50,464 bases of DNA. Source: Lachnospiraceae bacterium. Its GTDB lineage: Bacteria; Bacillota; Clostridia; Lachnospirales; Lachnospiraceae. Location of the stretch: assembly GCA_017470735.1 (NCBI GenBank), contig JAFUYB010000053.1, positions 1 through 50,464 on the forward strand. Reading direction: 5' to 3'. Positions 2,831-50,449 of this stretch are shown here, piece by piece (the first letter of the stretch is position 1; each line of letters starts with the position of its first letter). The notes under the pieces are model-generated. The model was given only the letters and a program-made list of their open reading frames with translations, was not told the origin of the DNA and did no database searches. Made by a program: the position numbers and the translations under genes.

Positions 2831-3250
2831 ATGGCGCATGATCTGGAGTGGGAGGAAGATGATAGTATGGATGAGATATCACACGAGAATGAGTCTCTGA
2901 TAAAGGAATTTGAGGCGTATCTTATTGCAGAAGGTTATGCGAAGAAGACCATTCGGCTTTACACCCATCATGCCAAAGCTTATATTGACTATATTATTGA
3001 TGGGACAGATGGGTTGATGGATGATGACCATGAGGATACTCCGGTTCGTGCTGTTGACGGCGTAAGGCATATTTCGTGGTATCTGCAGAGGCTGTGGAAT
3101 AAATTTGGGTTATCAAAGGGAGCTGTTGAGGAAGAGGCAAGAGGAATCAAGAGATTCTATTCGTGGATGAAAGAGCATGGCAGGATTGATGAGGTGGCGT
3201 TTGCAACGGTGGGGGAGCAGATTGAGGATGCCTTGCTATCTATGGAGTAA
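2831..3250 (+). CDS. Stand-alone phage-integrase N-terminal SAM-like (core-binding) domain protein with no catalytic domain
   Basis: GGAGG lies 9 nt before the 2831 ATG. The segment EFEAYLIAEGYAKKTIRLYTHHAKAYIDYI is typical of the tyrosine-recombinase N-terminal domain. No recombinase catalytic domain follows. Confidence 0.45.
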   Translation: MAHDLEWEEDDSMDEISHENESLIKEFEAYLIAEGYAKKTIRLYTHHAKAYIDYIIDGTDGLMDDDHEDTPVRAVDGVRHISWYLQRLWNKFGLSKGAVEEEARGIKRFYSWMKEHGRIDEVAFATVGEQIEDALLSME

Positions 3251-13425: not shown

Positions 13426-13483
13426 TAAGTCATGCAAAATGCATCAGTATTTTTGAGATTTGTTGTTTTGACGGCATAACTCC

Positions 13484-16400: not shown

Positions 16401-17380
16401 TGTCCGGTCTTCGGATCGTAGCAGGCGATGCCGCTGTCATTGGTTCCGATCCACAGGCGGTCGTGGGAATCGACATACATTTGCATGACATTGTTGATGC
16501 GCTCGTCCAGATCAGGCTTTGTGAAAACAGACCCGTCATAACGGTAAAGTCCCGAATAAGTGCCCGCCCAGATAAAGCCGTCGGAAGTCTGCGCGATCGC
16601 GTTGATCTCAGCGGAATCCAGACCGTCGTCGGTATTGTAGGTGACCGCGGCGTATTCCGTGGCGTAATCCGCGGCATATACGGTATCCGTCTGATGGAAC
16701 AGCAAAAATGTCCCGAAAAGCGGAATGATAACGGCGGTCAGGGCCGATATGGATTTTATGCGCGTCAAAAGCCGCTTGAAGCATTCGATCAGCCCGCAGG
16801 CAATGATAATGGAAAACGCCTTGTCGGGCATATCGACAAAGGCTTCGCCTAAGATACTGTAAATCAGGGGAACACGGATATCGCCGGAGATCATATCGAT
16901 CAGGGCATCGCCCCAGATATTGCCGGTGTAGCCATCGTAGAGAATGATATTGAGCACTGTGGAAAGGATCACGCTGACCAGTCCCGCCAGCATAGCGGTA
17001 GAAATCACCGTAAATGCTTCCCGGGTGCGGTTCCGCGGAAAGAAGATGCCGACCACGAGCCCGACGCCGGCGCTGACGATGATATAATATAAAGAAGAAA
17101 AATCATCCATCCCGCGCAGAATGCTGCACGCGCCCCCGGCGATCATGCCTGCGGCGGGGCCGAGCTGGATCGCCGCAATAAAGGTGCCGATGCAGTCGAG
17201 CCAGAACGGAAGCGACAGCCTTTCTGCCAGCTTGCTGCCGCCATAGTTGATCATCACACAAAAAATGACCAGCAGGATATTTGCGCGACCCGCCGGGAAG
17301 CTCCGGCGTATCTTCAGATGGGTCAGTTTTTGTAAGGATTCCGTCAGCATGGCGCTCGTTCCTTTCAAAAGGATATACAA
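13484..17380 (-). CDS. Large sensor diguanylate cyclase: N-terminal polytopic membrane domain, periplasmic beta-propeller repeats (two-component-regulator propeller / Y_Y_Y type), TM, GGDEF, and a ~200-aa C-terminal domain of unknown function
   Basis: Repeats such as DGFIWAGTYSGLYRYDG and DRLWIGTNDSGIACYDPKTGQ, then TGLLNKAASESE...RMGGDEFIAF. There are multiple hydrophobic helices in the first 210 aa. Confidence 0.8.
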   Translation of the reverse strand: MYILLKGTSAMLTESLQKLTHLKIRRSFPAGRANILLVIFCVMINYGGSKLAERLSLPFWLDCIGTFIAAIQLGPAAGMIAGGACSILRGMDDFSSLYYIIVSAGVGLVVGIFFPRNRTREAFTVISTAMLAGLVSVILSTVLNIILYDGYTGNIWGDALIDMISGDIRVPLIYSILGEAFVDMPDKAFSIIIACGLIECFKRLLTRIKSISALTAVIIPLFGTFLLFHQTDTVYAADYATEYAAVTYNTDDGLDSAEINAIAQTSDGFIWAGTYSGLYRYDGSVFTKPDLDERINNVMQMYVDSHDRLWIGTNDSGIACYDPKTGQITFYTTEDGLAANAIRAICEDKNGDIYVGTVALLSVVHPDGTVETFDKWTDMSGVHSFAENEDGTIAGVSGSGTLFFIKDGRLIKKTTLHKEDGIDYRAVACDGGNHYLVGTTSSYAINITLEGERIVKGARVSFSPASFFNDLIYNADAGGFFFCCESGFGFWDGKTAQPTALTVTGFDSSISDVIVDYQGNIWFASNKQGILRYSWNPFEDIFKKAGLNASVVNSLLVRNGILYIATNDGLEAINLSSYRKESFDWLSRFEHVRIRHITEDSKGNIWVSSYGPDGLAQIAPDGDITTYNEKNGTVGGEFRLAIELSDGRIAAASVSGINFIKNGKVKQAIGEADGLSTPQILSMMERDDGSILAASDGGGIFIIRDDKVAGTIDSKNGLDTLVVLRIIKCKDGYLYVTSNAIYHDNRREIKKLSNFPYSNNYDIHITDDGIAWICSSAGIYLVRENDLLADKKDYLYVLLNRSRGFFTTLTANAWNAAEDDLLYLCCTDGVRRISTVDYNAFNDDYQIRVSSILAAGKAVPETNGTFHIPAVSGRIQIQVAVLNFTMSNPLIHIYLEGAEDTGITCYQNELKPLDYTNLPYGDYKLHVQLLDETTGEVTREESFSVEKESQLFERFYFKAYLLFVILLFFSFFVWLIRELQKHAERVRGLQQRVTTDAMTGLLNKAASESEIGRLCADGSAGVLMMLDLDSFKLVNDIYGHDMGDWILICFSELIKASIQPDDLAGRMGGDEFIAFLHGNVEEQKVADIARYINDELVLSARSYMGDDMNIPLGTSIGAVRVPDGGADFTSLYQKADKALYNVKQNGKHGYAFYRKGSASNAASEKADIASLSNLRMILGERNVDKGAYTLSFEKLGVIYRFFVRFSQAHPMHVLFVRFVIVPKGDGSSVLPADADSFFEHLTLSLGSSDIVSRNGDCEYLAILTGNKDSDRTALIEKIVAEWPQSKEYEVSFEVEDLK

Positions 17381-18643: not shown

Positions 18644-18727
18644 TGCGGAGGATGGGACTTGAACCCACACGACATTGCTGCCACTAGATCCTTAGTCTAG
18701 CTCGTCTGCCAGTTCCGACACCTCCGC
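18644..18727 (-). tRNA. tRNA-Leu (class II, long variable arm); the anticodon loop as read is CUAAGGA, i.e. anticodon AAG
   Basis: Reverse complement is GCGGAGGTGTCGGAACTGGCAGACGAGCTAGACTAAGGATCTAGTGGCAGCAATGTCGTGTGGGTTCAAGTCCCATCCTCCGCA. T-loop is GGTTCAAGTCC. A34 is unusual for bacteria and needs checking. Confidence 0.75.
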
Positions 18728-18805
18728 ATTCGTCCGTTGAACGCAACGACTATATTACCAAAGACCCGGAAAAAAGTCAAGAAAGTTGCGGTCAGAAACA
18801 AATTT

Positions 18806-18836
18806 TTTTTCACAAACGCGAAAATTATGCTATACT
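18806..18836 (+). promoter_or_regulatory. Candidate promoter for the HD-GYP gene (extended -10 TGcTATACT)
   Basis: TGCTATACT at 18828-18836. The -35 is weak. Confidence 0.3.
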
Positions 18837-18875
18837 AATACGGCAACTTTGCAGGATTGGCATGGGAGAAAAGTT

Positions 18876-19970
18876 TTGGCGATCAAACAAAAGCGTGTCA
18901 GTATTCGGAAATTGGAAGAAGGGATGAAGCTCGGTCAGCAGATCAGGGATGCGACAGGACGGGTCTTGATCCAGCAGGGGACACAGCTTGAAGGGCATTA
19001 TATCCAGTACTTGGAGGAGCATGGCATCAACTCCATCATCATCCAGGAGGGTGAGGAGGACGGACCGCAGGTGCAGCTTTCGGACAAGGCAAAGCGCGCC
19101 GTTGAGCGGACGAGGGTGGATGATCCGGTCAAGGTTTCGCTGCGTGAAGATGTCAAAAAGCGTGTCGGCGAGGGCGTGCAGTTTTTATTTGACAATACGG
19201 AGTCCAAGAATTTTTTGGAGACGACGAACAATGTTTCCGAGGAATTGACGCGGGCGATCACCAAGTATGACGCTGTGGCGATCGATATTGCGCAGCTTAA
19301 AGTTTCAGATGAATACACATTCAAGCACAGCGTGGATGTGGCTTCCCTGTCGATGATCATTGGCAAGAAATACGGGCTGAAGAGGGACGAGATCCGGGAG
19401 ATCGGTATTGCGGGACTGCTGCATGATGTCGGCAAGTCCAAGATCCCAAAGCAGATTTTAAACAAGCCTGACCGTCTGACCGATGAGGAATTTCATCAGA
19501 TGAAGTTCCATTCCTTGTATGGTTACAAGATTTTGGAAGAAAACAACGGATTTTCCGTCGGCATCAAAAGCGGCGTGCTCCAGCACCATGAAAAGATGAA
19601 TGGAAAGGGTTATCCGATGTCGGTCGGCGGAGCGAAGATCCATCCGTTTGCGCGGATCATTTCGGTTGCGGATGTTTACGACGCATTGGTCACGGAACGC
19701 CCTTATAAAAAAGGTTTTCCGAAGAAGGACGCGATCGAGATCATTATGACGATGACCGATGACCTGGATATGAAAGCGATGAAGAGCTTTCTGACGAGCG
19801 TGATCCTCTATCCGGTGGACAGCATCGTCAGGCTTTCAAACGGCGAATACGGCAAGGTCGTTGAAAACAATCCCGATTACCCATTACGCCCCAAAGTCGT
19901 GGCGACCGAGACAGGCGCTGTGTACGATCTGAACAATGATGTCCACTGCCAGAGCATTGTGATTCTATAA
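18876..19970 (+). CDS. HD-GYP domain c-di-GMP phosphodiesterase
   Basis: HSVDV...LLHDVGKSKIP...HHEKMNGKGYP...VADVYDALVTERPYKKGF. TTG start at 18876 after GGGAGA. An alternative ATG lies at 18924. Confidence 0.8.
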   Translation: MAIKQKRVSIRKLEEGMKLGQQIRDATGRVLIQQGTQLEGHYIQYLEEHGINSIIIQEGEEDGPQVQLSDKAKRAVERTRVDDPVKVSLREDVKKRVGEGVQFLFDNTESKNFLETTNNVSEELTRAITKYDAVAIDIAQLKVSDEYTFKHSVDVASLSMIIGKKYGLKRDEIREIGIAGLLHDVGKSKIPKQILNKPDRLTDEEFHQMKFHSLYGYKILEENNGFSVGIKSGVLQHHEKMNGKGYPMSVGGAKIHPFARIISVADVYDALVTERPYKKGFPKKDAIEIIMTMTDDLDMKAMKSFLTSVILYPVDSIVRLSNGEYGKVVENNPDYPLRPKVVATETGAVYDLNNDVHCQSIVIL

Positions 19971-20069: not shown

Positions 20070-20154
20070 GCACGAGTGGCGGAATTGGCAGACGCGCAGG
20101 CTTCAGGTGCCTGTGGTCGTTAAGATCGTGTGGGTTCAAGTCCCACCTCGTGCA
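20070..20154 (+). tRNA. tRNA-Leu (anticodon CAG)
   Basis: GCACGAGTGGCGGAATTGGCAGACGCGCAGGCTTCAGGTGCCTG...TGGGTTCAAGTCCCACCTCGTGCA. Anticodon loop is TTCAGGT. A T-run follows and no CCA is encoded. Confidence 0.85.
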
Positions 20155-23787: not shown

Positions 23788-24858
23788 TTACAGTTTGCGC
23801 ATACGGTCAGGATTGATCGCATAGGTCATTGCAGTTTCCCGCGTGATGCGCCCTTCGTGGTAAAGCTCCTTTAAGCTGTCGTCCATCGAGCGCATCCCGC
23901 CGCCGGTTCCCGAATAGATCATACCGTCAATCTGGTAGATCTTGTTGTCGCGGATCATGTTGCGGATCGCGGGCGTGACGGTCATGATCTCAAAGACCGG
24001 CACGATGCTGTTGTCGATGGTCGGCACGAGCTGCTGCGAGACGACGGCATGCAGCACGGTCGAAAGCTGTACCGCGATCTGGTGCTGCTGGTTTGCCGGG
24101 AACACATCGATAATACGGTTGATCGTATTGGCGGCACCGATCGTATGCAGCGTGGACAGCAGCAGGTGTCCGGTTTCCGCGGCCGTCATTGCGACAGAAA
24201 TCGTTTCAAAATCACGCATCTCACCAAGCAGGATGACATCGGGACTTTGGCGGAGCGCCGCGCGCAGGGCGGCGACATAGCTTTCGGTATCGACGACAAC
24301 CTCGCGCTGGCTGACGATGCTTTTTTTGTGCCGGTGCAGATACTCGATCGGGTCTTCAAGAGTGATGATGTGCGCTTCCCGCTTTTCGTTGATATCTTCA
24401 ATGATACACGAAAGTGTCGTGGATTTGCCCGAGCCGGCCTGGCCGGTCACGAGCACCATGCCGTTGGAGAAATTGCCGAGGTCGATGATCTCCTGCGGGA
24501 TGTGCAGCTTTGACGGATCGGGCAGCTCAAAGCTGATGATACGCATAACCGCGGACAATGCGCCCCTCTGTTTGTAGGCGCAGACACGGAATCTTGAGAA
24601 TCCGGGGATCGCAAGGGAAAAGTCGTCGTCGCCGCGGTCGATCAGGATGCGGATATCACGGTCGGCAAGGCGGTAGATTTCCCGCAGCAGTTCTTCCGTC
24701 TGCGCCGGGAATACCTTTTCTCCGCCGTCCATATTGATCACGCCGTTCTTGCGGAAGGACACCGGTATACCTGCGACGATGAACACATCGGATGCGCGTT
24801 CCCGTACTGCCCGCTCTAAGATCTGCTCGATTCTCGTTTTCTCTTCCATAGTAGTCAC
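23788..24858 (-). CDS. pilT: PilT-type type IV pilus ATPase (retraction-ATPase family)
   Basis: Walker A (GQAGSGKST). PilT signature AIRNMIRDNK. 356 aa. Confidence 0.8.
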   Translation of the reverse strand: MTTMEEKTRIEQILERAVRERASDVFIVAGIPVSFRKNGVINMDGGEKVFPAQTEELLREIYRLADRDIRILIDRGDDDFSLAIPGFSRFRVCAYKQRGALSAVMRIISFELPDPSKLHIPQEIIDLGNFSNGMVLVTGQAGSGKSTTLSCIIEDINEKREAHIITLEDPIEYLHRHKKSIVSQREVVVDTESYVAALRAALRQSPDVILLGEMRDFETISVAMTAAETGHLLLSTLHTIGAANTINRIIDVFPANQQHQIAVQLSTVLHAVVSQQLVPTIDNSIVPVFEIMTVTPAIRNMIRDNKIYQIDGMIYSGTGGGMRSMDDSLKELYHEGRITRETAMTYAINPDRMRKL

Positions 24859-24888
24859 CTCGTGTATGGTCGTTTGTTGTCAAAATAA

Positions 24889-25350
24889 TTACCGTATGAC
24901 ATTTACGGTATCGTCGCCCTCCCAATTCTTGGTGGCGATTGTTTTAAACTCCGAAAACCGGTAGGCATTGGTTTCTTTGTCGTATTTAAAGACAACGGAC
25001 AGCGCCTGGATATCGGAAAGCTCATACTGGCGGCTGATTTTTGTTTCTAGTGTATCCGGGGTGGCATTGTCGGCTGTATCCGCTGCATCCGGTTCTGTGC
25101 CGGCTGCATTATTTCCACTGCTTGCCGCCGCCTTTCGGTTCAGCTCCGCTAAGTCCGTCTCCGCCTGGTTTGCCGCGGCATAATAGGCGTCGCGGCTGCT
25201 TTTGGTCAGTCCTGCCTGATGCCATTCGTTTTCCGCCTGCACGAGTGCGATCGCGGAAAAGGTGAACAGGCACAAAATCAGGAACACGACTAGAAGCAGT
25301 GAGATGCCGATATTCGCGGGTGGCGAAGCGTTGTTGCGTTCTGTGTTCAT
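24889..25350 (-). CDS. Small membrane-anchored protein (pilus-associated, hypothetical)
   Basis: A single N-terminal TM helix. The gene is co-directional and tightly spaced within the pil-like cluster. Confidence 0.45.
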   Translation of the reverse strand: MNTERNNASPPANIGISLLLVVFLILCLFTFSAIALVQAENEWHQAGLTKSSRDAYYAAANQAETDLAELNRKAAASSGNNAAGTEPDAADTADNATPDTLETKISRQYELSDIQALSVVFKYDKETNAYRFSEFKTIATKNWEGDDTVNVIR

Positions 25351-25369
25351 AAAAAGAAGCTCCTGTCAC

Positions 25370-25834
25370 TTATGGCGATGGTTGCTTTGCGTGATTGACG
25401 GACAGACTGTACACCTCGTCGCCATTCACATTGCGAAAGGTCAGATCGGCGTTTAGCATGTCGTCCGTTTCCGTCAATTGTACCGTCTCGACCTGCGCGA
25501 GCGTGCTCTTTGCCGTCGGCAGGTAATTGTCGTTAAAGTAGATCGAGATTTCATAGGGATCGGATTCCTGCGAAAGCTCCGCGTATTCATATACCCGCCC
25601 GATCTGCTGGGATACTTCCTCGATCGAGTTGGAGGTCCGTACCAGCTCCGCCGTGTCCGAGCAGATGTTCAATGCGTGGTTCAGCGCCTTGGCGCGTTCG
25701 CTCTGGATGTGCGCCTGCACGAAAATGGTAATGCACACGGACGCCGCCAATGTAAAAAACAAGATCGCGACGACAAGCTCCATCAGAAAGAGAGAGGAAG
25801 CAGACGCTCTTTTTCGCTTTAATTCCGCATTCAT
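25370..25834 (-). CDS. Prepilin-like protein (type IV pilin / pseudopilin candidate)
   Basis: The N-terminus KRKRASASS|LFLMELVVAILFF has Glu at +5 from the putative cleavage site, with Ser instead of the canonical Gly at -1. The stop overlaps the next gene's start by 4 nt. Confidence 0.5.
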   Translation of the reverse strand: MNAELKRKRASASSLFLMELVVAILFFTLAASVCITIFVQAHIQSERAKALNHALNICSDTAELVRTSNSIEEVSQQIGRVYEYAELSQESDPYEISIYFNDNYLPTAKSTLAQVETVQLTETDDMLNADLTFRNVNGDEVYSLSVNHAKQPSP

Positions 25835-26415
25835 GGTGTTCCTCCGGTTGATGTATCCGTGCTCTGGCCTGTTGCCGCAGCTGTCCCCGGTGTCTTGCTG
25901 CTTTCCGTGAAGCTGTTATCGACAACCAGATCCCCCGCATACACGCCGACCCGCGCTGTCGCCGTCTGTCCGTCGTTGTCCGTGCAGGAGAAAGACAGCA
26001 GGCGGTCTCCGGCGACCTCTACATTGAAATCCGCGATCTCGAGGATCGCCTGGCCGGAGGATGCGGTGAAATTCGCTTCCATGCCGTCCTTGATGAACAG
26101 CTCCCTCAACGCGCCGTTTGCCGCGTAAATATAAGTAGCGTACCAGTCATCGCCGAATTTTTCCTTCATCACGACTGCCTTAGAACCGTCAAAGGTCGTC
26201 ACGCCGATCCGCCCGTTGTCGTGCTGGTGGATCTTCTCGCGGATGTAGGAGAGCGAGGTGTTGGCGTTGTAATTCATGGCCGCGTCGGCAACCGTCCGCT
26301 GGTATACCTGCGCCGCGAAAAGAATGACGATCAGCGCAGAAAGTGTGAATGCAAAAAAAATCATAACAGGAAATACAAATTCAATTTGCCGGTTTTTTGA
26401 AACAGGTTTCCGCAT
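25831..26415 (-). CDS. Membrane-anchored protein (pilus-assembly accessory, hypothetical)
   Basis: N-terminal TM helix with a Thr/Gly-rich C-terminus. Confidence 0.45.
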   Translation of the reverse strand: MRKPVSKNRQIEFVFPVMIFFAFTLSALIVILFAAQVYQRTVADAAMNYNANTSLSYIREKIHQHDNGRIGVTTFDGSKAVVMKEKFGDDWYATYIYAANGALRELFIKDGMEANFTASSGQAILEIADFNVEVAGDRLLSFSCTDNDGQTATARVGVYAGDLVVDNSFTESSKTPGTAAATGQSTDTSTGGTP

Positions 26416-26434
26416 ATTGTTACTTTCCTTGGTG

Positions 26435-26902
26435 TTACCTTAAAATAGTGCGGTTTTCGGCGCGTTCGAGGATATTATTCTTCATCTCCTCTTTCTTTTC
26501 TAACACCGCATACACGGTCTCCTGCGCGAAGCCGATTGCCTTTTGCGCAGGCGTGCGGGTGTCTTCGGGATGCAGCTCGATGATCGTCACATCGGGAATA
26601 ATGTTCTGCGCCCGCACCTGATAATCCACATAAAACAGGTCTTCATTGTAATACAGTCCGTAATCCGAGCGGATGGCCTCAAGGGATTCCGGATAATGTC
26701 CGGTCGTGGCGTAGCAGTAGACGATGTCGCGGGAGAGCGCGTCGGTCAGGCTTTCCTTCTGTCTTTTGGTGGAGCCTTTGCTTAAAGAACCCGTGCCGAC
26801 CACAAAAAGCACGATGACCATCGTAAACAGCAGCAGGGTCGGAAGCAGTGAGGCAAGCGTGCCGGTATGCCGTTTGGTTGTGATATAAGAAAACCGTGCC
26901 AT
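26435..26902 (-). CDS. Membrane-anchored protein (hypothetical)
   Basis: N-terminal TM helix. No canonical prepilin motif. Confidence 0.45.
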   Translation of the reverse strand: MARFSYITTKRHTGTLASLLPTLLLFTMVIVLFVVGTGSLSKGSTKRQKESLTDALSRDIVYCYATTGHYPESLEAIRSDYGLYYNEDLFYVDYQVRAQNIIPDVTIIELHPEDTRTPAQKAIGFAQETVYAVLEKKEEMKNNILERAENRTILR

Positions 26903-26970
26903 AAATCAACTCCCCGGCACTCCCGGGACAGATGCTTAAAAACCAGCAGCACATCCCGGCAGCATTCCCA

Positions 26971-28107
26971 TTACAATGTCGCCATAATCCCAAGCAGCGG
27001 GAACATTACGGACAGCAGGATCACACCGACCACGACCGAGAGCACGACGATCAGCGCGGGCTCTAAAACCGCCAGCCGGTTGGAGATTTTTGTGTCTATT
27101 TCATCTTGGTAAAGCGTTGCGATCTGCCCCATGACCTGGTCGAGCGAACCGGTCTTGTTGCCGATTGAGGTCAGGCGCGAATACACGCCGGTAAAAATGC
27201 TCGTCTCGTGAAGCGCGTCGGAAAGCGATGTGCCCTCCAGCATCTTGGCGCGGCACTTGTCAAGCTTCTTGCCAAAGTCTTTATCTTCGTTCAATTCCGC
27301 CACCAACTCAAAGCCGCGGTCAGGCGAGAGTCCGCTCCGCAGGATCAAAGACATGCCGTCCGCAAAACGGCAGGAGGCGATGCGGTCGTTCAGTTCCCTT
27401 GTCGCCTTGAACCGTCTTGTAACTCTTCTCGATAAGGCTTTTCCGGCATCGGTCTTGACGCAGAAGAACGCAAAGATAATGATGACGGCGAGCAGGATTA
27501 CAAACAGCAGCGCGTAGGTGCTGATGAAGTTGGACGCTGCCATCAGTCCCGCGGCAAAGCCTGTCATTTCGGTGCCGAGCTGGCGGAATACCTGGTTGAA
27601 GATCGGCATCACACGCACCAGCAGAATGATAATGACCGCAATGATCATGCCCGACATGATCAGAGGGTAGGTGACCGCGCTCTGGATCGACTGCCGCAGC
27701 TGTTCCTCGCGGCTGTAATGCTCTTCAAGCGCTTCCATGACCTCATCGAGATTGCCGGTTTCCTCGCCGATCGCGACCATATGGATCATATAGTCGGGAA
27801 AAGCTTCCGTAGCGGCCAGGCCGACCGAAAGCTGCCCGGTCAGATGCACGGTCTCCACGATGATCTCGACGATTTGCCGGTCCGCGCCGGTGGAGAAGTC
27901 ATCCTCCATCATTTCCACGCCCTCGATCGAGGAAATGCCGGACTTTAAGATCAGAGCCATCTGCCCGCAGAAATAGGACAGCTCCAGATAAGAGAGCGGA
28001 CGGATTTTTTTCCGGCGGCTCTTTTTGGGCTTCTTTGCCCGTGGCTCCTTTTTTGGTTTTTCGGTTTTTATTTTTGCTCTTTTTCGTGGCATAATCTTTC
28101 CCGTCAT
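26971..28107 (-). CDS. pilC: PilC/GspF-family platform protein with an unusual ~45-aa Lys/Arg-rich N-terminal extension
   Basis: Two T2SSF repeats (GISSIEGVEMM...; GLSPDRGFELV...). The N-terminus reads MTGKIMPRKRAKIKTEKPKKEPRAKKPKKSRRKK. Confidence 0.75.
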   Translation of the reverse strand: MTGKIMPRKRAKIKTEKPKKEPRAKKPKKSRRKKIRPLSYLELSYFCGQMALILKSGISSIEGVEMMEDDFSTGADRQIVEIIVETVHLTGQLSVGLAATEAFPDYMIHMVAIGEETGNLDEVMEALEEHYSREEQLRQSIQSAVTYPLIMSGMIIAVIIILLVRVMPIFNQVFRQLGTEMTGFAAGLMAASNFISTYALLFVILLAVIIIFAFFCVKTDAGKALSRRVTRRFKATRELNDRIASCRFADGMSLILRSGLSPDRGFELVAELNEDKDFGKKLDKCRAKMLEGTSLSDALHETSIFTGVYSRLTSIGNKTGSLDQVMGQIATLYQDEIDTKISNRLAVLEPALIVVLSVVVGVILLSVMFPLLGIMATL

Positions 28108-30195: not shown

Positions 30196-31128
30196 TTACA
30201 ATGCCATCCGCTGGCGGAACAGCTGTACGCGTGTCCGCTTCGTGTCGAGCATCTGCAGCTTCTGCGCGCCGATCAGCGCGATGTCCTCCTGCGTGAAGGT
30301 CACGGAAAGAGGCAGGGGTTCGAGCTGTTCTTCTTCGATCAGCTCCTCAAACGGAATGATTTCCTGCAGCAGCTTTTCATTTTCGCTCTGTTCTTCTTCG
30401 ACAGCGGCTTCGCCGCGGACTTTCTCGGTCAGACGGTTGGATGAAAGAGCAATCAACCGCGTGATCGAGGTGATATCGTCCCGCGCGGCATAGGCCACGC
30501 CAAATTCGTACTCGATGTGATGGTTCTTGGTATTGGCATTGTAATCCCGCACTTTATCCGCCAGGCGGTCCAAAAAGACCGCGAGATGCAGATCGGAGCT
30601 TTTTTCATATAATATAATGAAGCGGTTGCCGCCGTTGCGTCCGACGATGCATTCGTCCAGTGAAGCCATCGACAGAATGATCGAAAAGGCGCGGATCAGG
30701 TTGTTGCCCTCAACGCGTCCATAGTTGGAGTTGACCTCTTTTAATGAAGTCAATTCGATCATCGCGGCGCCCATCTCGCCCGGAATGTCCTTGTCAGCGT
30801 ATTCATCGATGATCGAGTCGATCGAATAGCGGTTGGCGATCCGCGCGACCGAGTCGGTATTGGCGGCTGCGGTCAGGCTCGCTAAATTTTCGTTCTGTTT
30901 TGAGTATAGGGAGAAATCGACAAAGATGCAAGCAAAACTCAAAAAAAGTGATACCCAAAGGAAAATACACAGATGCATGACATTTTTATCCGTGGTGATC
31001 TGCTGGTAGATATCGCTTGCGATGACGATTTGGTAGAAGCAGACGCCTGCGAAGGCCATGAAGACGACGAGTTCTAAGGTTTTCATTTGGTCGAATTTTT
31101 TCATTTGTACACACACCTTTCTCAGCAC
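30196..31128 (-). CDS. Membrane protein with a degenerate GGDEF domain (GGNRF in place of GG[DE]EF)
   Basis: Two N-terminal TM helices. DSVARIANRYSIDS...RVEGNNLIRAF...IVGRNGGNRFIILYE. Confidence 0.6.
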   Translation of the reverse strand: MLRKVCVQMKKFDQMKTLELVVFMAFAGVCFYQIVIASDIYQQITTDKNVMHLCIFLWVSLFLSFACIFVDFSLYSKQNENLASLTAAANTDSVARIANRYSIDSIIDEYADKDIPGEMGAAMIELTSLKEVNSNYGRVEGNNLIRAFSIILSMASLDECIVGRNGGNRFIILYEKSSDLHLAVFLDRLADKVRDYNANTKNHHIEYEFGVAYAARDDITSITRLIALSSNRLTEKVRGEAAVEEEQSENEKLLQEIIPFEELIEEEQLEPLPLSVTFTQEDIALIGAQKLQMLDTKRTRVQLFRQRMAL

Positions 31129-33962: not shown

Positions 33963-34099
33963 GAAAAATGCATATATATTATCATTCCGGAACGCTCTCG
34001 CTTCGGCACTCACGCAACGGTACTAAATTCGTGCCTTGCACTCATTAAGTGCCGGCGTTCGTAACGATCCGTAATAATATATGTATGCATTTTTCCCAA
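33963..34099 (-). ncRNA. Riboswitch-like structured leader, probably a THF (tetrahydrofolate) riboswitch, enclosed by a ~35-bp imperfect AU-rich stem
   Basis: The minus-strand RNA contains ...GCCGGCACUUAAUGAGUGCAAGGCACG...GUUGCGUGAGUGCCGAAGCGAGAGCGUUCCGG.... The CGAAGCGAGAGCG core matches my recollection of the THF aptamer. Flanking inverted repeats are gggaaaaatgcatatatattatcattccggaacg and cgtaacgatccgtaataatatatgtatgcatttttccc. Confidence 0.5.
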
Positions 34100-34301
34100 T
34101 ATACTTTCTGTAAATTTTAGATTAACGGTACTACAGATATCCTAGCACAAATATTTTGGAGAGTAAAATAGAAAATAATTATTACCACCGATAGTCACAA
34201 GGGAAATTTTGTGGTATGATATTTGAAGTGTGGAAAGAGGGGCCTTTTTATAGAAGATAATGGTGTGTGTTTTGGCTGGCTTGTGTGTGGCGAGGTGAAA
34301 G

Positions 34302-35540
34302 ATGTTTTATCCGGAAAAAGGGAAAAAATATGTGCGGATTCGCAAGAATCACCGGAACTATCAGGAAGAGATGCTGAAGAAACGTTGGATAAAGACGGCT
34401 GTTATTTTAGTGATCGTAGTTGCACTTGTCGGGGCAGGCGTCTTTTTTCGCGTGCCGCAGAAGCTCGCGACGGCAGCGGTAAATGTCTATGGGCAGCTGC
34501 AGAGCGGAAAAAAGGTGACGAAAAAGGAGCCAAAGGCAGCGACAGAACCGGAGCAGGAAGAGGTCGTTGAGGAGCCGGAGGAGGAAGTGATCGAGCCTGC
34601 CACGCTGATTTTTACGGGCGATGTGGAGTTGTCCACCTATGTGCAGGCGAATTATGACGCGTCCGGGATCGATGGCGTGACGAGCGCGGCGCTCCGCAAA
34701 GAGCTTAAAGCGGCGGATATTGCGGCGGTCAACAATGAATTCGCTTTCTCCGAGCGCGGTACGGCGGCGGACAAGCAGTACACCTTCCGTGTCGCGCCGC
34801 ATTATGTGTCAGCGCTCAATGAATTAGGGATTGATGTCGCGGGACTTGCCAACAATCATTCTTTGGATTACGGGCAGGACGCGCTTTTGGATACGATTCA
34901 GACCTTAAACGACGCAGGCATTGACAATACCGGCGCAGGCAACAGCATGGATGAGGCGGCGCGGCTTGTCGTCAAAGAGATTGACGGCATCCGCTATGGC
35001 TTTTTGGCGTGTTCGCGGGTGATTCCCTATGCGAGCTGGGATGTGCGCAATGTACAGCCGGGCTTGTTTACCTGCTATGACCCGTCGGAGCTGATCGCGC
35101 GGACGCAGGCGGCAAAGGAGCAGTGCGATTATCTGTTTGTGCTTGTCCATTGGGGAATCGAGCATACGACACAGCTTGAAGCCTACCAGAGCCAGATCGG
35201 ACAGGCGGTGATCGATGCCGGCGCGGATGCGGTCATCGGCGCGCATCCCCATGTGCTGCAGGGGATCGAATATTACAACGGCAAGCCGATCTTTTACAGC
35301 CTCGGCAATTTCATTTTCAATCAGGACATTGACCAGACGGCGATCGTCAAAGTGACAGCCGATCCGGAGGCAGGATTGAGCTTTTCCCTGATTCCGGCCT
35401 ATGCTCGCAACGCCACGACGCGCCTTGCCAGCGAGACCGAAGCGGCAGGCTACGACAAGACCGAAGAAATACTGAATACATTGCGTGAGTTATCACCCAA
35501 TGTAGAAATAGACGAAAACGGAAATATGTCAGAAAGATAA
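34302..35540 (+). CDS. capA: CapA/PGA_cap-family metallophosphatase-fold protein (poly-gamma-glutamate capsule-synthesis-like), membrane-anchored
   Basis: LIFTGDVELS...VNNEFAFSERG...ANNHSLDYG...GAHPHVLQGIEYYNGKPIFYSLGNFIF. Confidence 0.75.
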   Translation: MFYPEKGKKYVRIRKNHRNYQEEMLKKRWIKTAVILVIVVALVGAGVFFRVPQKLATAAVNVYGQLQSGKKVTKKEPKAATEPEQEEVVEEPEEEVIEPATLIFTGDVELSTYVQANYDASGIDGVTSAALRKELKAADIAAVNNEFAFSERGTAADKQYTFRVAPHYVSALNELGIDVAGLANNHSLDYGQDALLDTIQTLNDAGIDNTGAGNSMDEAARLVVKEIDGIRYGFLACSRVIPYASWDVRNVQPGLFTCYDPSELIARTQAAKEQCDYLFVLVHWGIEHTTQLEAYQSQIGQAVIDAGADAVIGAHPHVLQGIEYYNGKPIFYSLGNFIFNQDIDQTAIVKVTADPEAGLSFSLIPAYARNATTRLASETEAAGYDKTEEILNTLRELSPNVEIDENGNMSER

Positions 35541-35780
35541 TGTTGTAATCAGAAAAGTGAGCGTGTGATGAGATAATAAGGAGTTTTCTTTAAGTGAAAT
35601 GGAGATGAAATCGCCGCTTACTTGAGACACGATTTTACACCATGAACCAAAGCCGTCGGTGAATGGTGCAGAAAATCGATGTCGATGTTAGCGGGGAGTT
35701 CATCGGAATGGTCTGAGCGCAGAAAAATCCTTATTATCTCATCATACGCGCAGTTTCCGGAAAAGAAAGGAAAATCTTAA

Positions 35781-36695
35781 ATGCAACACCTAATGAGCCC
35801 AATGGATATGACAGTCGACGAGCTTGAAGACCTGATGCGGCTGGCAGAGTCCATCGAATCGGATCCGGCGAAATACGCCCACGCCTGTGACGGCCGCATT
35901 CTCGCGACCTGTTTTTATGAACCCTCCACCCGTACCCGCTTATCCTTTGAATCGGCGATGCTGCGGCTTGGCGGGCAGGTGCTCGGCTTTGCGGACGCGG
36001 ATTCCTCATCAGCGGCAAAAGGAGAGAGCGTTTCCGATACGATACGGATCGTTTCCTCTTATGCGGACATCTGTGCCATGCGCCATCCCAAGGAAGGCGC
36101 TCCGCTGGTTGCGTCTTCAAGATCCCTGATCCCGGTTATCAATGCGGGGGACGGCGGACACGAGCATCCGACCCAGACTCTGACGGATCTTTATACGATC
36201 CACAGCTTAAAAGGCGGCATCGGCCATTTGACGATCGGACTGTGCGGCGACCTCAAATTCGGCCGTACCGTCCATTCCCTGATCAATGCGCTGGTGCGTT
36301 ATCCGGATATTACCTTTGTGCTGATCTCACCGGAAGAGCTTAAAATTCCAAGCTATCTCCGTGAGGATGTGCTGATGGCGAACCATATCCCGTTCACCGA
36401 AGTGGAAAAACTCGAAGACGCGATGCCCGACCTTGACATCCTCTATATGACGCGTGTCCAGAAAGAGCGTTTCTTCAATGAAGAAGATTACCTGCGGATG
36501 AAAGGGTTCTACATTTTAGATAAAGAAAAACTGACCCTTGCAAAAGAGGATATGCTCATCCTCCATCCGCTCCCCCGCGTCAATGAAATCTCCGTGGAAG
36601 TCGACGACGACCCGCGTGCGGTGTACTTTAAGCAGGCGAAGAAGGGAGTCTTTATTCGTCAAGCACTCATTTTACGACTGCTTGAGATAGCGTAA
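35781..36695 (+). CDS. pyrB: Aspartate carbamoyltransferase catalytic subunit
   Basis: [13 protein letters not shown], and HPLPR present. Confidence 0.9.
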
Positions 36696-36808
36696 ATGAT
36701 AGATAGCAATTTATATTTATAATTTCACAGGATTGTAAGCCGCTGGAATGGTCTGAGTGCAGAAAAGCACCCAATCATTTTAGCGGCATAGCAAGAGAAA
36801 GGAACGAT

Positions 36809-37264
36809 ATGCTCAACATCAGCGGCATCAACGAAGGCTATGTCCTCGACCACATCCGTGCGGGAATGAGCCTCCAAATCTACCACGACCTCAAGCTCGA
36901 CACCCTCGAAGACTGCATGGTCGCGATGATCACCAATGCAAAAAGCAACAAAATGGGGCGCAAAGACATCATCAAAGTCGAATGCCCGATCGATGCAATC
37001 GACCTTGACATTCTCGGATATCTCGACCACAATATCACGGTCAACATCATCAAAGACGACCGGATCGTCGAAAAGCGCGCGCTGGCATTGCCCAAGCAGA
37101 TCAAAAATGTCATCCGCTGCAAGAATCCGCGCTGCATCACAAGCATCGAGCAGGAGCTGGACCAGATTTTCATTCTGACGGATGAAGAGCGTGAGATTTA
37201 CCGCTGCAAATACTGTGAAGAGCGTTACCGCGGGCACCACCGGAGGCATGCGTCAAAACGCTAA
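36809..37264 (+). CDS. pyrI: Aspartate carbamoyltransferase regulatory subunit
   Basis: N-terminal allosteric domain plus a C-terminal zinc domain (CKNPRC...CKYC). Confidence 0.85.
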   Translation: MLNISGINEGYVLDHIRAGMSLQIYHDLKLDTLEDCMVAMITNAKSNKMGRKDIIKVECPIDAIDLDILGYLDHNITVNIIKDDRIVEKRALALPKQIKNVIRCKNPRCITSIEQELDQIFILTDEEREIYRCKYCEERYRGHHRRHASKR

Positions 37265-37346
37265 ATAGGCAAGATTTTCATATGTTCCTGATGCGGCAAA
37301 TGATGGCACGCTGATGGAACAAGAGACAAATGGTAAGGAGCAACAG

Positions 37347-38843
37347 ATGAAAAAGATACACGGACTGTTTGAAGAACTGGATTACCGGATTTTACAGGGC
37401 GGCATCGACGGCGATATTACGGAATTGATCTACGATTCCCGGAAAGCGTGCGAGGGCTGCCTGTTTGTATGTATCAGCGGTGCCAATGTGGACGGGCATT
37501 CTTACGCGTCGGCGGTGGCGGACAATGGCGCGAAGGTGATCGTCGTGGAAAAGCCGGTGGATGTCCGCAGCGATGTGACGGTCGTGCAGGTGACGGATAC
37601 GCGTGAGGCGCTGGCCAAGCTGTCAGCCGCGTATTTCGATCATCCGGCAAAAGAGGTCCGCTGCATCGGGATTACCGGAACCAAAGGCAAGACTACGACG
37701 ACCTACATGGTGCGGTCGATATTGGAGAACGCAGGCTACCATGTCGGACTGATCGGAACGATCGAGACGATCGTCGGTGACGAACATACGCCGGCGCTTA
37801 ACACGACGCCGGAGTCTTACGCGATACAAAAGGATCTGCGCAAGATGGCGGATGCCGGGCAGGATGTCTGCGTGATGGAGGTGTCTTCGCAAGGGCTGAT
37901 GATGCACCGTGTGGACGGGATGACCTTTGAGGTCGGCATTTTTACCAATATCGAGCCGGATCATATCGGACCGAATGAGCACAAGGATTTTGACGACTAT
38001 CTTCACTGCAAGAGCCTGCTGTTTAAAAAGTGCAGGCTGGGTATTTTCAATGCGGATGATGCGCATCTGCGGGAGATCCTTGTGGGACACACCTGCGAGG
38101 TGAAGACCTGCGGTTTCGCGGAAAATGCGGATATCCGTGCCGTTCACAAAAAGTTGCTGACTGAAAACGGGTCGCTTGGCGTTTCCTATGATACAGTCGG
38201 CGATGTGGCGGCTCATTTTGAGGTGCCGCTGCCGGGGACATTTTCCGTGTACAATTCCCTGACGGCGATCGCGATCTGCCATCATTTCGGGGTAGGCGTG
38301 GACGAAATGCAAAAGGCGCTCGACCGTGTCCATGTCAAGGGCAGGATCGAACCGGTCAGGATTTCGGATAAGTTTACATTATTGATCGATTACGCGCACA
38401 ATGCGATGAGCCTGAAAAGCCTGCTGATGACCTTGCGGGACTACGAGCCAACACGGCTGGTCTGCCTGTTCGGCTGCGGCGGCAACCGTTCCAAGCTGCG
38501 GCGGTTTGAGATGGGCGAGGTATCGGGCGAACTGGCGGATTTTACGATCATCACTTCCGACAATCCGCGGTTTGAAGAACCGGCAGCGATCATTGAGGAT
38601 ATTAAGAGCGGGATCAGCAAGACCGATGGTGAATTCATCGCGATAGAAGACCGGAAAGAGGCGATCCGTTACGCGATCGAAAACGCGCAGGACGGCGATG
38701 TGATCGTGCTCGCAGGAAAAGGACATGAGGATTACCAGGAGATCCGCGGGAAAAAGCATCATATGGATGAGCGGGATCTGATCGCTGAGATCGTTGCAGA
38801 GGGCACGCCGTTTATCGGGCGCCTGGAAGGGGCTGATTCGTAA
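37347..38843 (+). CDS. murE: UDP-N-acetylmuramoyl-L-alanyl-D-glutamate--2,6-diaminopimelate ligase
   Basis: GITGTKGKTTT. A DNPR motif (ITSDNPRFE) suggests meso-DAP specificity. AAGGAG RBS. Confidence 0.85.
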   Translation: MKKIHGLFEELDYRILQGGIDGDITELIYDSRKACEGCLFVCISGANVDGHSYASAVADNGAKVIVVEKPVDVRSDVTVVQVTDTREALAKLSAAYFDHPAKEVRCIGITGTKGKTTTTYMVRSILENAGYHVGLIGTIETIVGDEHTPALNTTPESYAIQKDLRKMADAGQDVCVMEVSSQGLMMHRVDGMTFEVGIFTNIEPDHIGPNEHKDFDDYLHCKSLLFKKCRLGIFNADDAHLREILVGHTCEVKTCGFAENADIRAVHKKLLTENGSLGVSYDTVGDVAAHFEVPLPGTFSVYNSLTAIAICHHFGVGVDEMQKALDRVHVKGRIEPVRISDKFTLLIDYAHNAMSLKSLLMTLRDYEPTRLVCLFGCGGNRSKLRRFEMGEVSGELADFTIITSDNPRFEEPAAIIEDIKSGISKTDGEFIAIEDRKEAIRYAIENAQDGDVIVLAGKGHEDYQEIRGKKHHMDERDLIAEIVAEGTPFIGRLEGADS

Positions 38844-43581: not shown

Positions 43582-43938
43582 AAAAGCTCCTTTGTGTTGA
43601 AGAATAATTGCCGGCAATCCACAGGACTGCATTGCCATGTATATTGCCATTACCATAGCATAACTGAAGCGGATTTGCCACATGAATTCCCGGAATTGGC
43701 TCTGATAATAAAATAGTTTTGTAGCTATGTCATCCTTTTTCTGATATAATCAAATGGATGTGCATGGAATGAATGCTGGAAATTATATGGAGGGATCCGG
43801 CGGCATCCCTGTCAGGAAAAGTGGAAAGCAAAAGGAGCCAAGTACTGTCCAACGAATACGAAGTATGAGTTGATGACAGCACTGGCATCCGGCAGTGTAA
43901 GTCAGATAATAAACTGTGGTTATTTTGAGGAGGAGACA

Positions 43939-47763: not shown

Positions 47764-48897
47764 TTAGCCTAAAATCTCATGTACCCTTTCCTGGATCATC
47801 TTACTAACCAATCTCAATCTGTCTGATGAATAATTATATGCACCCACCCTTTGCAGGTTATATGTTAGCATCTTTCTCAATTTTTCTTTTAATCTGCTGT
47901 CAATTACCTTTTTTGCCTCCTCGATATAATCTTCATAGACACAGGGAAGCAAAGTCTCAGCATATTTTTTTAGGAGTTTCTCATTTGTCCAGTTTTCTTC
48001 TCCTGCCAAATTAAATAAGGAATTCCCATGGTCAAACATTGGAGCCGGAGCTATTATCTTGTTCGTTCTGCTATCAACTAACAATCCGAAATTGCCATAA
48101 TGTCGATCAGTATTGTAGATCACAGCATCAAATACTATCATATCGTTAAGAGCATCTACATATTCAGATCCCAGCTTCTCGTAATACTCTCGTACCGCCT
48201 TCATTCCACCAGTTTTTACTATACGGCCGATGGGAACAAATGATATATCTTTACTCGTAAATAACTCACATACAGAACACATGTGTTTTTTCCATTTTGA
48301 GATCTTGTACGGAACAACATTCATATCTAAAGCTGTCCCAATCTCATAAGCATATAATTCCGAAAATGGTTCGTTTCCCGTATTGGATGCTCCCGATGTA
48401 GCTCCTTTGTATAGATAAACTTTTCCGGAAATTCTTCTCCAGCATTTCGGAAGCATTCCGTTTGTTGTAAACTCCGGAGATGATGCCAGCGAAGACCTCG
48501 CACTGCTGCCGTATCCTGTAAAAGCAATCATGGCAAGAATACGGCTGAAATTATTCTCATAGAGATTATTATCTTCAAATGTTCCCTCAAATCCGTCTTC
48601 TACTACCCAATAGGAATCATTCAAAGATACCCCCCTGCATACCAAAATAACATCCATAGGTCTGTTGGCATTAAGTCCGCACTTTGCAAGGAAAGCATTA
48701 ACATAGGCCCGGTTTTTCGGGATAGTCCTGTTTTTCAACCAAGAAGCAAGCCCCTTATCGCTAAGTTCCATACCTAAAGGTAAAAGATGTTTCTTCCCTT
48801 CATTGATCCATGTGATCTGTAACACCGGATCAGAAAGATTCTCAATGATTTTAAACTTTAATAGATTTGTGTTAAACAGTTTTAAAAAGTATTCCAT
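47764..48897 (-). CDS. hipA: HipA-like Ser/Thr kinase (type II toxin family), with no HipB-like partner visible
   Basis: C-terminal catalytic motif NTDRHYGNFGLLVD. AT-rich (~35% GC) relative to its neighbours. Confidence 0.55.
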   Translation of the reverse strand: MEYFLKLFNTNLLKFKIIENLSDPVLQITWINEGKKHLLPLGMELSDKGLASWLKNRTIPKNRAYVNAFLAKCGLNANRPMDVILVCRGVSLNDSYWVVEDGFEGTFEDNNLYENNFSRILAMIAFTGYGSSARSSLASSPEFTTNGMLPKCWRRISGKVYLYKGATSGASNTGNEPFSELYAYEIGTALDMNVVPYKISKWKKHMCSVCELFTSKDISFVPIGRIVKTGGMKAVREYYEKLGSEYVDALNDMIVFDAVIYNTDRHYGNFGLLVDSRTNKIIAPAPMFDHGNSLFNLAGEENWTNEKLLKKYAETLLPCVYEDYIEEAKKVIDSRLKEKLRKMLTYNLQRVGAYNYSSDRLRLVSKMIQERVHEILG

Positions 48898-49414
48898 AAA
48901 GATGCTCCGTGGCAGATGAATAAAAATTCCAATTGTACAATCCGTGTAATTGTGCTAAAATAAAAATGTTATCGAAATCAAGAACAAAGGGTGTCTGATG
49001 TGTACCGCCTGAGGGAGTGGCAGCTCCCACAGGCAGGGCATGGTAAACACACTACCACACGATACAGTCTTTCGGCTGCGATACACGCCTGTTATTGTAC
49101 CACAAGAATTAGTATATGGCAAAGCAGGCAGTTTCATTGTATTTGCGGTTTGAAGCAATCTCTGCGCATTGCGGGGTGTCGGTGTGGATGTACCGGCACC
49201 CCGTTCTTGGTTTCCTGCAAATGATTGTGGGAAATTGGGATTGGAAGGCTGTCCGGAGGCAGATGTTTCAGTCTGTTTTTGGACGGCTTTTTTGTACCTT
49301 GACAATGTGCACAGGGATTGCTTTTTTTGATACAGAAAAATGCATAATCGGGTTTTCTTGCTATATGATTTCAGCGGCAGCAACGCAAACAATTTCAGAT
49401 GGGAGGAACCGGTT

Positions 49415-50449
49415 ATGGCAGTACGAAACAGTGGGACAAACAAGGCTTGCAAAGCGAAACAGGACACCTACGGCATGGGTGACATTGTGACGGCAGAGGC
49501 GATGATCCAGGCGTGCCGGAAGAGGGGCAGGATCGTCTGGGCATACGGGCGGGTCAGCACCGACGCGCAGGAACTCGAGAGGCAGAACCATGTGTTTGAA
49601 GGGCTGGGGATTGACGACGAGCACCGTTTCAATGAAAAGAAATCGGGCAAAGATTTTGACCGTCCCGTATTCCGGGAGCTGATGGAAAAAGTGGAGCCGG
49701 GAGACCTGATCGTATGTCGTTCGGTTGACCGGTTCGGCAGGAATCTGATTGAGAATGAGCGGCTGAGAAACGAGATCACATTTGGGAAAAATGTTGGGAT
49801 CGCTTTTACGGATTCGCCGCTTCTGAACCGCACCGGAGACCAATCCACGATGGGCTACCTGATGTCCAGCATTATGTATATTTTTCAGTCGTTTTTTGCG
49901 GAAACGGAGCGGAATTCCATCCTGCAGAGGACGGCGGAGGGCAGGAGGATTGCAATGGAAAATGGCGTGAAATTCGGACGGCCGTCATATAGGATTCCGG
50001 AGAAATTCCGCGAAATAAAAGATGATATCATTGACGGCCGGATTTCCATCAATCAGGCAAAGAAACAATTGGGAATCAATTACAGGACATTGAAAAAGTG
50101 GCTGCGTACGGCGCGAAAGGAAGAGTTATCAGACATGCTTCGGATCAGAGCGCATGGACTTTTGGACGCTGTGCAGGAAATGGACGGTGGTTCGCCGTCG
50201 CTCCGTTTGGCAGCACAACAGCTTGCGGCACAGATGACCGAAGAGGCAGAAAAACTGTCTACAGAGGAACGCAAAAAGCCTGAATTTGATGAGTCAGGAA
50301 AGGTAAAGAAGCCGAAACGCCAGAAAAAAGAAACAGATCTCGATCTGGAGATAGAGCGGATGGAAAAGGCAACGGCAGAGTTTGTACGGAGAGCGGATGA
50401 AATGATGGAAGCTATGTACGGGGGAAGCTTGTCTGTTGCAGAATCTTAA
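49415..50449 (+). CDS. Serine recombinase (resolvase/invertase family) with a ~120-aa C-terminal coiled-coil extension
   Basis: GGGAGGAA RBS. Catalytic N-domain (WAYGRVSTDAQ, VCRSVDRFGRN) and HTH (INQAKKQLGINYRTLKKWL). Confidence 0.75.
   Translation: MAVRNSGTNKACKAKQDTYGMGDIVTAEAMIQACRKRGRIVWAYGRVSTDAQELERQNHVFEGLGIDDEHRFNEKKSGKDFDRPVFRELMEKVEPGDLIVCRSVDRFGRNLIENERLRNEITFGKNVGIAFTDSPLLNRTGDQSTMGYLMSSIMYIFQSFFAETERNSILQRTAEGRRIAMENGVKFGRPSYRIPEKFREIKDDIIDGRISINQAKKQLGINYRTLKKWLRTARKEELSDMLRIRAHGLLDAVQEMDGGSPSLRLAAQQLAAQMTEEAEKLSTEERKKPEFDESGKVKKPKRQKKETDLDLEIERMEKATAEFVRRADEMMEAMYGGSLSVAES

Follow-up and report, generated by a model that had tools for sequence, protein, structure and literature searches.

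The pyrBI locus and its surroundings

The window analysed here is a whole stretch of DNA of 50,464 nucleotides from an uncultured gut Lachnospiraceae bacterium (GenBank assembly GCA_017470735.1, contig JAFUYB010000053.1). As shown in Table 1, the operon around the element under study is ordered capA-pyrB-pyrI-murE-priA. A long hairpin, hereafter called the rod (W1), lies between capA and pyrB, and a remnant hairpin (W2) lies between pyrB and pyrI. Genes for c-di-GMP signalling, encoding GGDEF/EAL proteins, GGDEF proteins with Reg_prop repeats, and an HD-domain protein, are abundant nearby (10789-17380, 18786-19970, 23788-28107, and 30196-31128), and the same regions also hold many genes for type II/IV secretion or for pili (T2SSE, T2SSF). 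The only Rfam matches at the gathering level in the window are two tRNA genes, each with a long variable arm (18644-18727, minus strand; 20070-20154, plus strand). At the window end, a HipA-like kinase ORF below the Pfam cut-off (47764-48897, minus strand) and a serine recombinase gene with a Resolvase domain (49340-50449, plus strand) may mark the edge of a mobile element.

Table 1. Positions of the genes, hairpins, motif copies, and promoter-like sites at the pyrBI locus of the window.
Feature	Position	Strand	Remarks
capA (PGA_cap gene)	34302-35540		Pfam
Whole rod upstream of pyrB (W1)	35549-35761	+	Well-paired part 35558-35752
5′ outer arm of W1, GCGTGTGATGAGATAATAAGGA	35561-35582	+	Extended -10-like TGAGATAAT at 35569-35577
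Conserved core of W1	35584-35726	+	144 nt; starts with the U-tract UUUUCUUU and ends with ...GCAGAAAA
Apical hairpin of W1	35625-35684	+	60 nt, identical in W1 and the L085 copy; includes the short variant
Short motif variant, GAATGGTGCAGAAAA	35661-35675	+	Apical hairpin, 3′ strand; partner is CGAUUUUACACCAU at 35630-35643
Motif copy 1, GGAATGGTCTGAGCGCAGAAAA	35705-35726	+	Lower 3′ strand of the W1 rod
3′ outer arm of W1, TCCTTATTATCTCATCATACGC	35728-35749	+	Pairs with 35561-35582
pyrB Shine-Dalgarno sequence, purine-rich, GAAAGGAAAA	35765-35774	+	13 nt past the rod; can also pair with the U-tract
pyrB, aspartate carbamoyltransferase catalytic chain	35781-36695	+	Pfam OTCace_N, OTCace
AT-rich promoter-like stretch, pyrB-pyrI spacer	36696-36752	+	Consensus scan
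Promoter-like site 1, ATGATA-N16-TATAAT	36696-36723	+
Promoter-like site 2, TTCACA-N17-TG-AATGGT	36724-36752	+	-10 reads AATGAT in intact copies
Remnant hairpin (W2), outer arms and motif	36739-36787	+	49 nt; fold of -28.6 kcal/mol
Motif copy 2, GGAATGGTCTGAGTGCAGAAAA	36745-36766	+	GGAATG at 36745-36750 is the deletion junction
pyrI, aspartate carbamoyltransferase regulatory chain	36809-37264	+	Pfam PyrI, PyrI_C
murE	37314-38843		Pfam; priA is next

A repeated motif is one strand of a long hairpin

The motif GGAATGGTCTGAG(C/T)GCAGAAAA, 22 nt in length, was found twice on the plus strand, upstream of pyrB and upstream of pyrI, with one mismatch between the two copies. An earlier note on this DNA had reported such a repeat before these two genes. 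The repeat was confirmed, and so was its link to pyrB and pyrI, both of which are identified by their Pfam domains. The sites had been placed correctly, although the ranges were 2-4 nt too wide and the length is 22 nt rather than 24 nt. Elsewhere in the 50-kb window, there is no further match with three or fewer mismatches. The repeat is non-random, as the earlier note had supposed: the chance expectation is zero, and none of the dinucleotide shuffles gave a match (0/100). A third, shorter variant had been noticed near 35668. It is present, but it belongs to the apical 3′ strand of the same hairpin.

What did not hold is the view of the motif as an independent short site. It was revealed that motif copy 1 is one strand of a hairpin of about 200 nt, while the copy before pyrI is a deletion remnant. 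The RNA structure prediction that the earlier note had called for shows that the 240-nt capA-pyrB spacer folds as a single unbranched hairpin (-96 kcal/mol, z = -8.5). The underlying inverted repeat has two arms of 41 nt each (35549-35589 and 35721-35761), which are 85% complementary. Its outer duplex consists of 22 consecutive base pairs with one G·U pair, and the consensus model of the rod has 67-69 pairs, small internal loops, and no branch point. Within the rod, the AGAAAA tract of the motif pairs with UUUUCU (35584-35589), its UCU with GGA, and its AU with AU. All the copies of the rod found in this study have the same orientation, and 21-31 nt separate their ends from the pyrB or pyrI start codon.

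Is the element a regulon-wide pyr/car site? So far as seen, it is not. The true ATG of the carB gene in the same window is at 43939, the gene ends at 47280, and no carA lies directly upstream. The carB leader of about 255 nt (43684-43938) lacks the motif, contrary to the idea that a car gene might also carry it, and has no Rfam match. Its alignment score against the element is 19 as compared with 18 ± 2.4 for shuffles, that is, there is no similarity. The carB leader has features of its own, a strong promoter-like sequence (TTGTAG-N17-TGATATAAT) and a GC hairpin.

Two paralogous copies, a deletion, and losses

The pyrI-side copy was explained by the locus of a sister species, L085, whose PyrB is 98% identical in amino acids (about 90% identity in DNA). 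L085 has a spacer of only 6 nt before pyrB, with no element there, while its pyrB-pyrI spacer of 248 nt contains a complete rod (z = -9.1). Removing the 138 nt between the two GGAATG repeats of L085 (2706 and 2844) reproduces the pyrB-pyrI spacer of the window. Thus, motif copy 2 is the remainder of a second rod. A covariance model also matches W2 at 36734-36794 (E = 1.5e-5). There are two paralogous rod copies in this clade, and in the window, the pyrB-type copy is intact and the pyrI-type copy has been cut to 49 nt. Between the intact copies, the 144-nt cores of L085 (2722-2865) and of the window (35584-35726) share 89.6% identity. In the outer arms, identity falls to about 50% (12/24 and 11/24), yet the two arms of each copy are complementary to each other; the outer duplex of L085 has 20 bp with one bulge.

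A third species, represented by the contigs L093 and L102 of run SRR32206242 (PyrB 94% identical), has ends of the element before both pyrB and pyrI. The two contigs open with the same 30 nt (positions 1-30 of each), GCTCGTTGGAGTGGTCTGAGTGCAGAAAAA. Thus, the assembly broke inside the element, and therefore both copies of species 3 share an identical core stretch. This suggests gene conversion between the paralogues. Over all five copies seen, the motif is the best-conserved part of the element, with 20-21 of its 22 positions identical.

Conservation in orthologous leaders, which the earlier note had made a point to check, holds within narrow bounds: the element is kept in three related species and absent from about 90 other Lachnospiraceae pyrB loci examined. 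In the syntenic close relatives (L086-L092 and L094-L101), the capA-pyrB spacer is 4-49 nt and the pyrB-pyrI spacer is 16-67 nt in length. L086 groups inside the clade in a neighbour-joining tree of PyrB, and both of its spacers lack the element. In its 43-nt pyrB-pyrI spacer (3088-3136), GCGGGCATAG and ATTTTCTTAC...GGAAATGGA loosely resemble the end of the 3′ arm and the start of the 5′ core, and may be relics of a lost copy. L103, L104, and L105 are other species without the element. The motif was not found in 80 metagenome pyrB loci at 73-81% PyrB identity, whose leaders are unrelated to each other and to W1.

The wider searches gave the same picture. With the covariance model R1, a search of the window plus 98 loci (498 kb) gave only the known copies. 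A 20-mer of the motif had two matches in 185,579 species-representative genomes, one in Saprospiraceae and one in Acidobacteriota, which I estimate to be about the number expected by chance. No match was obtained for the leader among phages and plasmids (blastn), for a 32-mer of the core among viral contigs, or for a chimeric six-frame translation of the core among 5.8 billion proteins, where spurious ORFs on other copies were sought. The element is dispensable: it has been lost before pyrB in L085, its pyrI copy is truncated in the window, and L086 has none.

Other leaders and neighbours were seen at the pyrB loci of Lachnospiraceae. In L061, L062, and L073, and likewise in L028 and L066, pyrB is preceded by GC-rich hairpin leaders of other, unrelated kinds with no Rfam match, and lineage-specific pyrB leaders may be common in Lachnospiraceae. 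In L074 (1696-2027), L044 (3901-4252, minus strand), and L105 (7650-8133, minus strand), the RNase P RNA gene (RF00010) adjoins pyrBI.

Conservation and compensatory changes

For pyrB, the window and L085 differ by a dS of 0.49, and the window and species 3 by a saturated dS of about 2.0. The divergence of the core between W1 and the L085 copy is K = 0.11. The parts of the element available from species 3 are 84% identical to the window or L085, and include fully identical arm stretches of 16-22 nt; a stretch of 20 nt of the 3′ outer arm of W1 is identical in species 3 (L093 1-59). The neighbouring pyrB ends are about 80% identical, the same as the remaining gene, and are not unusually similar. 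These comparisons indicate purifying selection at two fixed orthologous positions and not a recent spread.

Not all of the high identity was counted as conservation. Between the window and L085, the region of about 36650-36990 is 97-100% identical on a background of about 90% identity, and it covers the flanks of the pyrB-pyrI spacer and the first third of pyrI (dS 0.08). I dropped the identity of the spacer flanks as a signal of selection: since the block extends into pyrI, a recombination tract is more likely than selection, and the block is probably such a tract between the sister species.

In an alignment of W1, the L085 copy, and a chimera of species 3, which samples only three species and about 2.5 full sequences and was scored against a structure derived from these same sequences, 98.8% of the cells pair and 19 pairs have changed on both sides. 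None of 500 shuffles reached this result (0/500), and slid controls gave one to three double-sided changes. The motif itself has one such change; GGAAUGG has become GGAGUGG in species 3, and the partner U has become C. The plus strand folds better than the minus strand by 8.5-14.5 kcal/mol, and the L085 copy has six G·U pairs. It is known that template switching in quasi-palindromes can yield paired changes without selection on RNA (PMC8794818). Given the conservation of the element at saturated pyrB dS, the double-sided changes, and the folding of the sense strand together, the element looks like a functional, cis-acting mRNA leader.

Alternative explanations

Could the rod be a selfish or neutral palindromic repeat of the MITE, ERIC, or Correia type, sitting in two operon spacers, with no role specific to the pyr genes and, at the most, the general effect of any hairpin in an mRNA? 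Several traits agree. The element is small, non-coding, and nearly palindromic (about 200 nt, 67 pairs, and no conserved ORF), its presence varies among close relatives, most of which have spacers of 4-67 nt, and copies have been lost or truncated. Co-transcribed MITEs are also known as RNase III substrates (PMC10969869). However, a family of many dispersed copies was not seen in the window, the 498 kb of related loci, the representative genomes (where the 20-mer stays at about the chance level), phages, plasmids, or viral contigs. The conserved terminal inverted repeats of a MITE are also lacking; the paralogues agree at about 50% of the positions in the outer arms and at about 90% in the interior, the reverse of what a MITE shows. 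A target-site duplication is not evident either, and the capA-pyrB junction compared with L085 has only an AGAAAG microhomology and no clean duplication. Moreover, the element keeps the same two orthologous positions, under purifying selection, across species whose synonymous sites are saturated. I consider the selfish repeat to be rather unlikely. A quite different proposal treats the element as DNA: the 5′ outer arm would be a promoter with its start at the G before GUUUU(U)CUUU, and high UTP would lead to reiterative transcription as at E. coli pyrBI. For the pyrI type, the candidate promoter is TTCACA-N17-TG-AATGAT; for the pyrB type, it is TGAGATAAT, recognised by sequence inspection only. 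In favour of this proposal, the promoter-like site of L085 (2685-2713) scores 9/12 with the TG, and both L085 and species 3 keep TTCACA, TGGAATGAT, and the spacing of 17 nt. In both paralogues, reading the sequence 7 nt on from each -10 leads to a +1 at the G before the U-run. E. coli pyrBI starts at AATTTG and shows UTP-dependent slippage on its T-run (PMC7039003). On the other side, the promoter-like matches, including the two sites of the pyrB-pyrI spacer, are not more numerous than expected by chance for the region, W1 has no -35, and species 3 has a C between the G and the U-run (GCUUUUC). The proposal also leaves the complementarity of the 3′ arm to the promoter unexplained, while the U-run is ordinarily explained as the pairing partner of AGAAAA. 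Thus, on balance, such a promoter is improbable. I also rejected an invertible promoter, since the sequence enclosed by the arms is palindromic in its own right.

The two remaining alternatives concern regulators of pyrimidine genes. If the motif were a free-standing operator or RNA-binding site of a pyrimidine regulator shared over a pyr/car regulon, its repetition before two pyr cistrons and its being the best-conserved part in five copies would follow naturally. But the bases of the motif are paired in the rod and co-vary with the partner strand, copy 2 is explained by the deletion in the second rod, and the motif is absent from the carB leader, the roughly 90 related pyrB loci, and the species-representative genomes scanned; such a site is highly improbable. 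A divergent PyrR-type attenuator would share its position before successive pyr cistrons with the three attenuation regions of the B. subtilis pyr operon, where the binding loop has the consensus ARUCCAGAGAGGYU (PMC7430163). The earlier note had doubted a PyrR site, rightly as it turned out. In 35400-36900 and in L085 2600-2960, cmscan found neither RF00515 nor any other Rfam family, whether the gathering score or E ≤ 10 was taken as the limit. No site resembling the binding-loop consensus within three mismatches lies in 34000-38000, and hence none in 35400-36900; the whole window has nine such sites as compared with 9.85 expected by chance. A scan of 35300-37400 for intrinsic terminators gave no terminator-like site, and 20 pyrB loci of relatives also lack PyrR sites. 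The PyrR attenuator is close to refuted. A leader peptide was rejected as well because the small ORFs are not conserved; the ORF is 8 aa long in one copy and 15 aa in the other, and species 3 has lost the ATG.

A possible mode of action

The explanation I prefer is that the element is a clade-specific, unbranched, sense-strand hairpin of about 200 nt that acts in cis at the 5′ side of pyr cistrons, a reading with roughly an even chance of being correct. The element would be transcribed within the pyrB or pyrI mRNA and would act on the downstream cistron. In the rod, the AGAAAA tract of the motif would hold the U-rich tract UUUUCUUU. If freed, the U-tract would pair with the purine-rich ribosome-binding site 13-20 nt past the rod. 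In folding predictions, both AGAAAA and the Shine-Dalgarno (SD) sequence are possible partners of the U-tract. In the folded full W1 transcript, the SD sequence is mostly likelier to be unpaired (unpaired probability 0.33-0.99). In a transcript starting at 35583, its central GGAAA is paired (unpaired probability 0.04-0.37). The SD sequence is predicted to be open in the full-length RNA of the L085 copy, largely open in W1, and more paired in RNAs without the 5′ arm.

The outer duplex of 20-22 bp may also be a target of RNase III, and the conserved internal loops around GGAAUGG may be the recognition site of a trans-acting factor. Since the U-tract could compete for the SD sequence and the duplex is long enough for RNase III, control of translation and/or of mRNA processing and stability is the likely output. 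A rod of -90 kcal/mol is hard to switch, and no ligand pocket is evident in the unbranched consensus structure. Even if the rod is a structural or processing hairpin and nothing else, the repeat before pyrB and pyrI is still accounted for. The case of this motif would then also be a warning that a larger fold should be looked for before short repeats are read as binding sites.

Does the element respond to pyrimidines? A more specific form of the cis-acting hairpin would be a clade-specific, pyrimidine-responsive leader for the aspartate carbamoyltransferase genes. The rod might carry its own promoter and sense UTP by slippage on a GUUUU(U)C start, or a nucleotide-sensing protein might bind at the conserved GGAAUGG internal loops. 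In either variant, AGAAAA would act as an SD mimic, and on it would depend whether the real SD sequence can be blocked by the U-tract. I regard this pyrimidine-responsive form as unlikely. The sequences themselves show the anatomy of the rod, its paralogy, the deletion, its conservation, and the compensatory pairing; transcription of the rod, the SD/anti-SD logic, cleavage by RNase III, and any link to pyrimidines are what I infer.

The classic examples of repression without repressors are the pyrimidine genes, with their PyrR attenuation and NTP-sensitive initiation. The pyrBI loci of gut Lachnospiraceae examined here show neither of the two. A conserved and duplicated long-hairpin leader would be a fresh example of such control coming into being, being copied inside one operon, and decaying again. 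The element is confined to a few uncultured species and is small enough for direct testing.

Comparison with known systems

Among the leaders of pyrimidine genes, the PyrR regions of B. subtilis (RF00515) resemble the element in that a structured sense-strand leader is repeated before successive pyr cistrons. They differ in that the rod is a single 200-nt hairpin, as compared with the short PyrR binding hairpin, and has no terminator/antiterminator pair. The E. coli pyrBI leader belongs to the same operon, and a T-run at a start predicted from a -10-like hexamer can be compared with its AATTTG (PMC7039003). In the element, this T-run (GUUUUCUUU or GUUUUUCUUU) lies 6-7 nt past the -10-like hexamer, the start being a predicted one next to promoter-like matches at the chance level. 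Unlike E. coli pyrBI, the element has no conserved leader peptide and no rho-independent attenuator.

A riboswitch aptamer is usually a multi-helix junction or a pseudoknot. Leaders with SD-sequestering riboswitches are similar to the element in that a pyrimidine-rich tract pairs with an internal SD-like tract or with the real SD sequence. The rod differs from riboswitches in being unbranched and very narrowly distributed, and in having neither an evident ligand pocket nor an Rfam match. 6S RNA (RF00013) is also a rod, with a large central bubble; the internal loops of the element are small, and no Rfam match was found at E ≤ 10.

A substrate of RNase III is typically a double-stranded RNA of some two helical turns, at least 20 bp, with hardly any interruption. 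The outer duplexes predicted in silico have this length, 22 bp in W1 and 20 bp in the L085 copy. The element thus resembles Correia and ERIC elements and the intercistronic RNase III hairpins, which are long imperfect hairpins in spacers with a duplex of at least 20 bp and a patchy occurrence among relatives. Cleavage by RNase III and an effect on mRNA levels are known for co-transcribed palindromic repeats (PMC10969869). Correia and ERIC elements are, however, multi-copy families with conserved terminal repeats, while the rod is known at two pyrBI sites only, its termini differ between the copies, and its copies have kept fixed orthologous positions under purifying selection. Compared with all these systems, the element is a functional-looking, structured cis-leader of pyr cistrons that is of a non-PyrR kind and matches no known RNA family.
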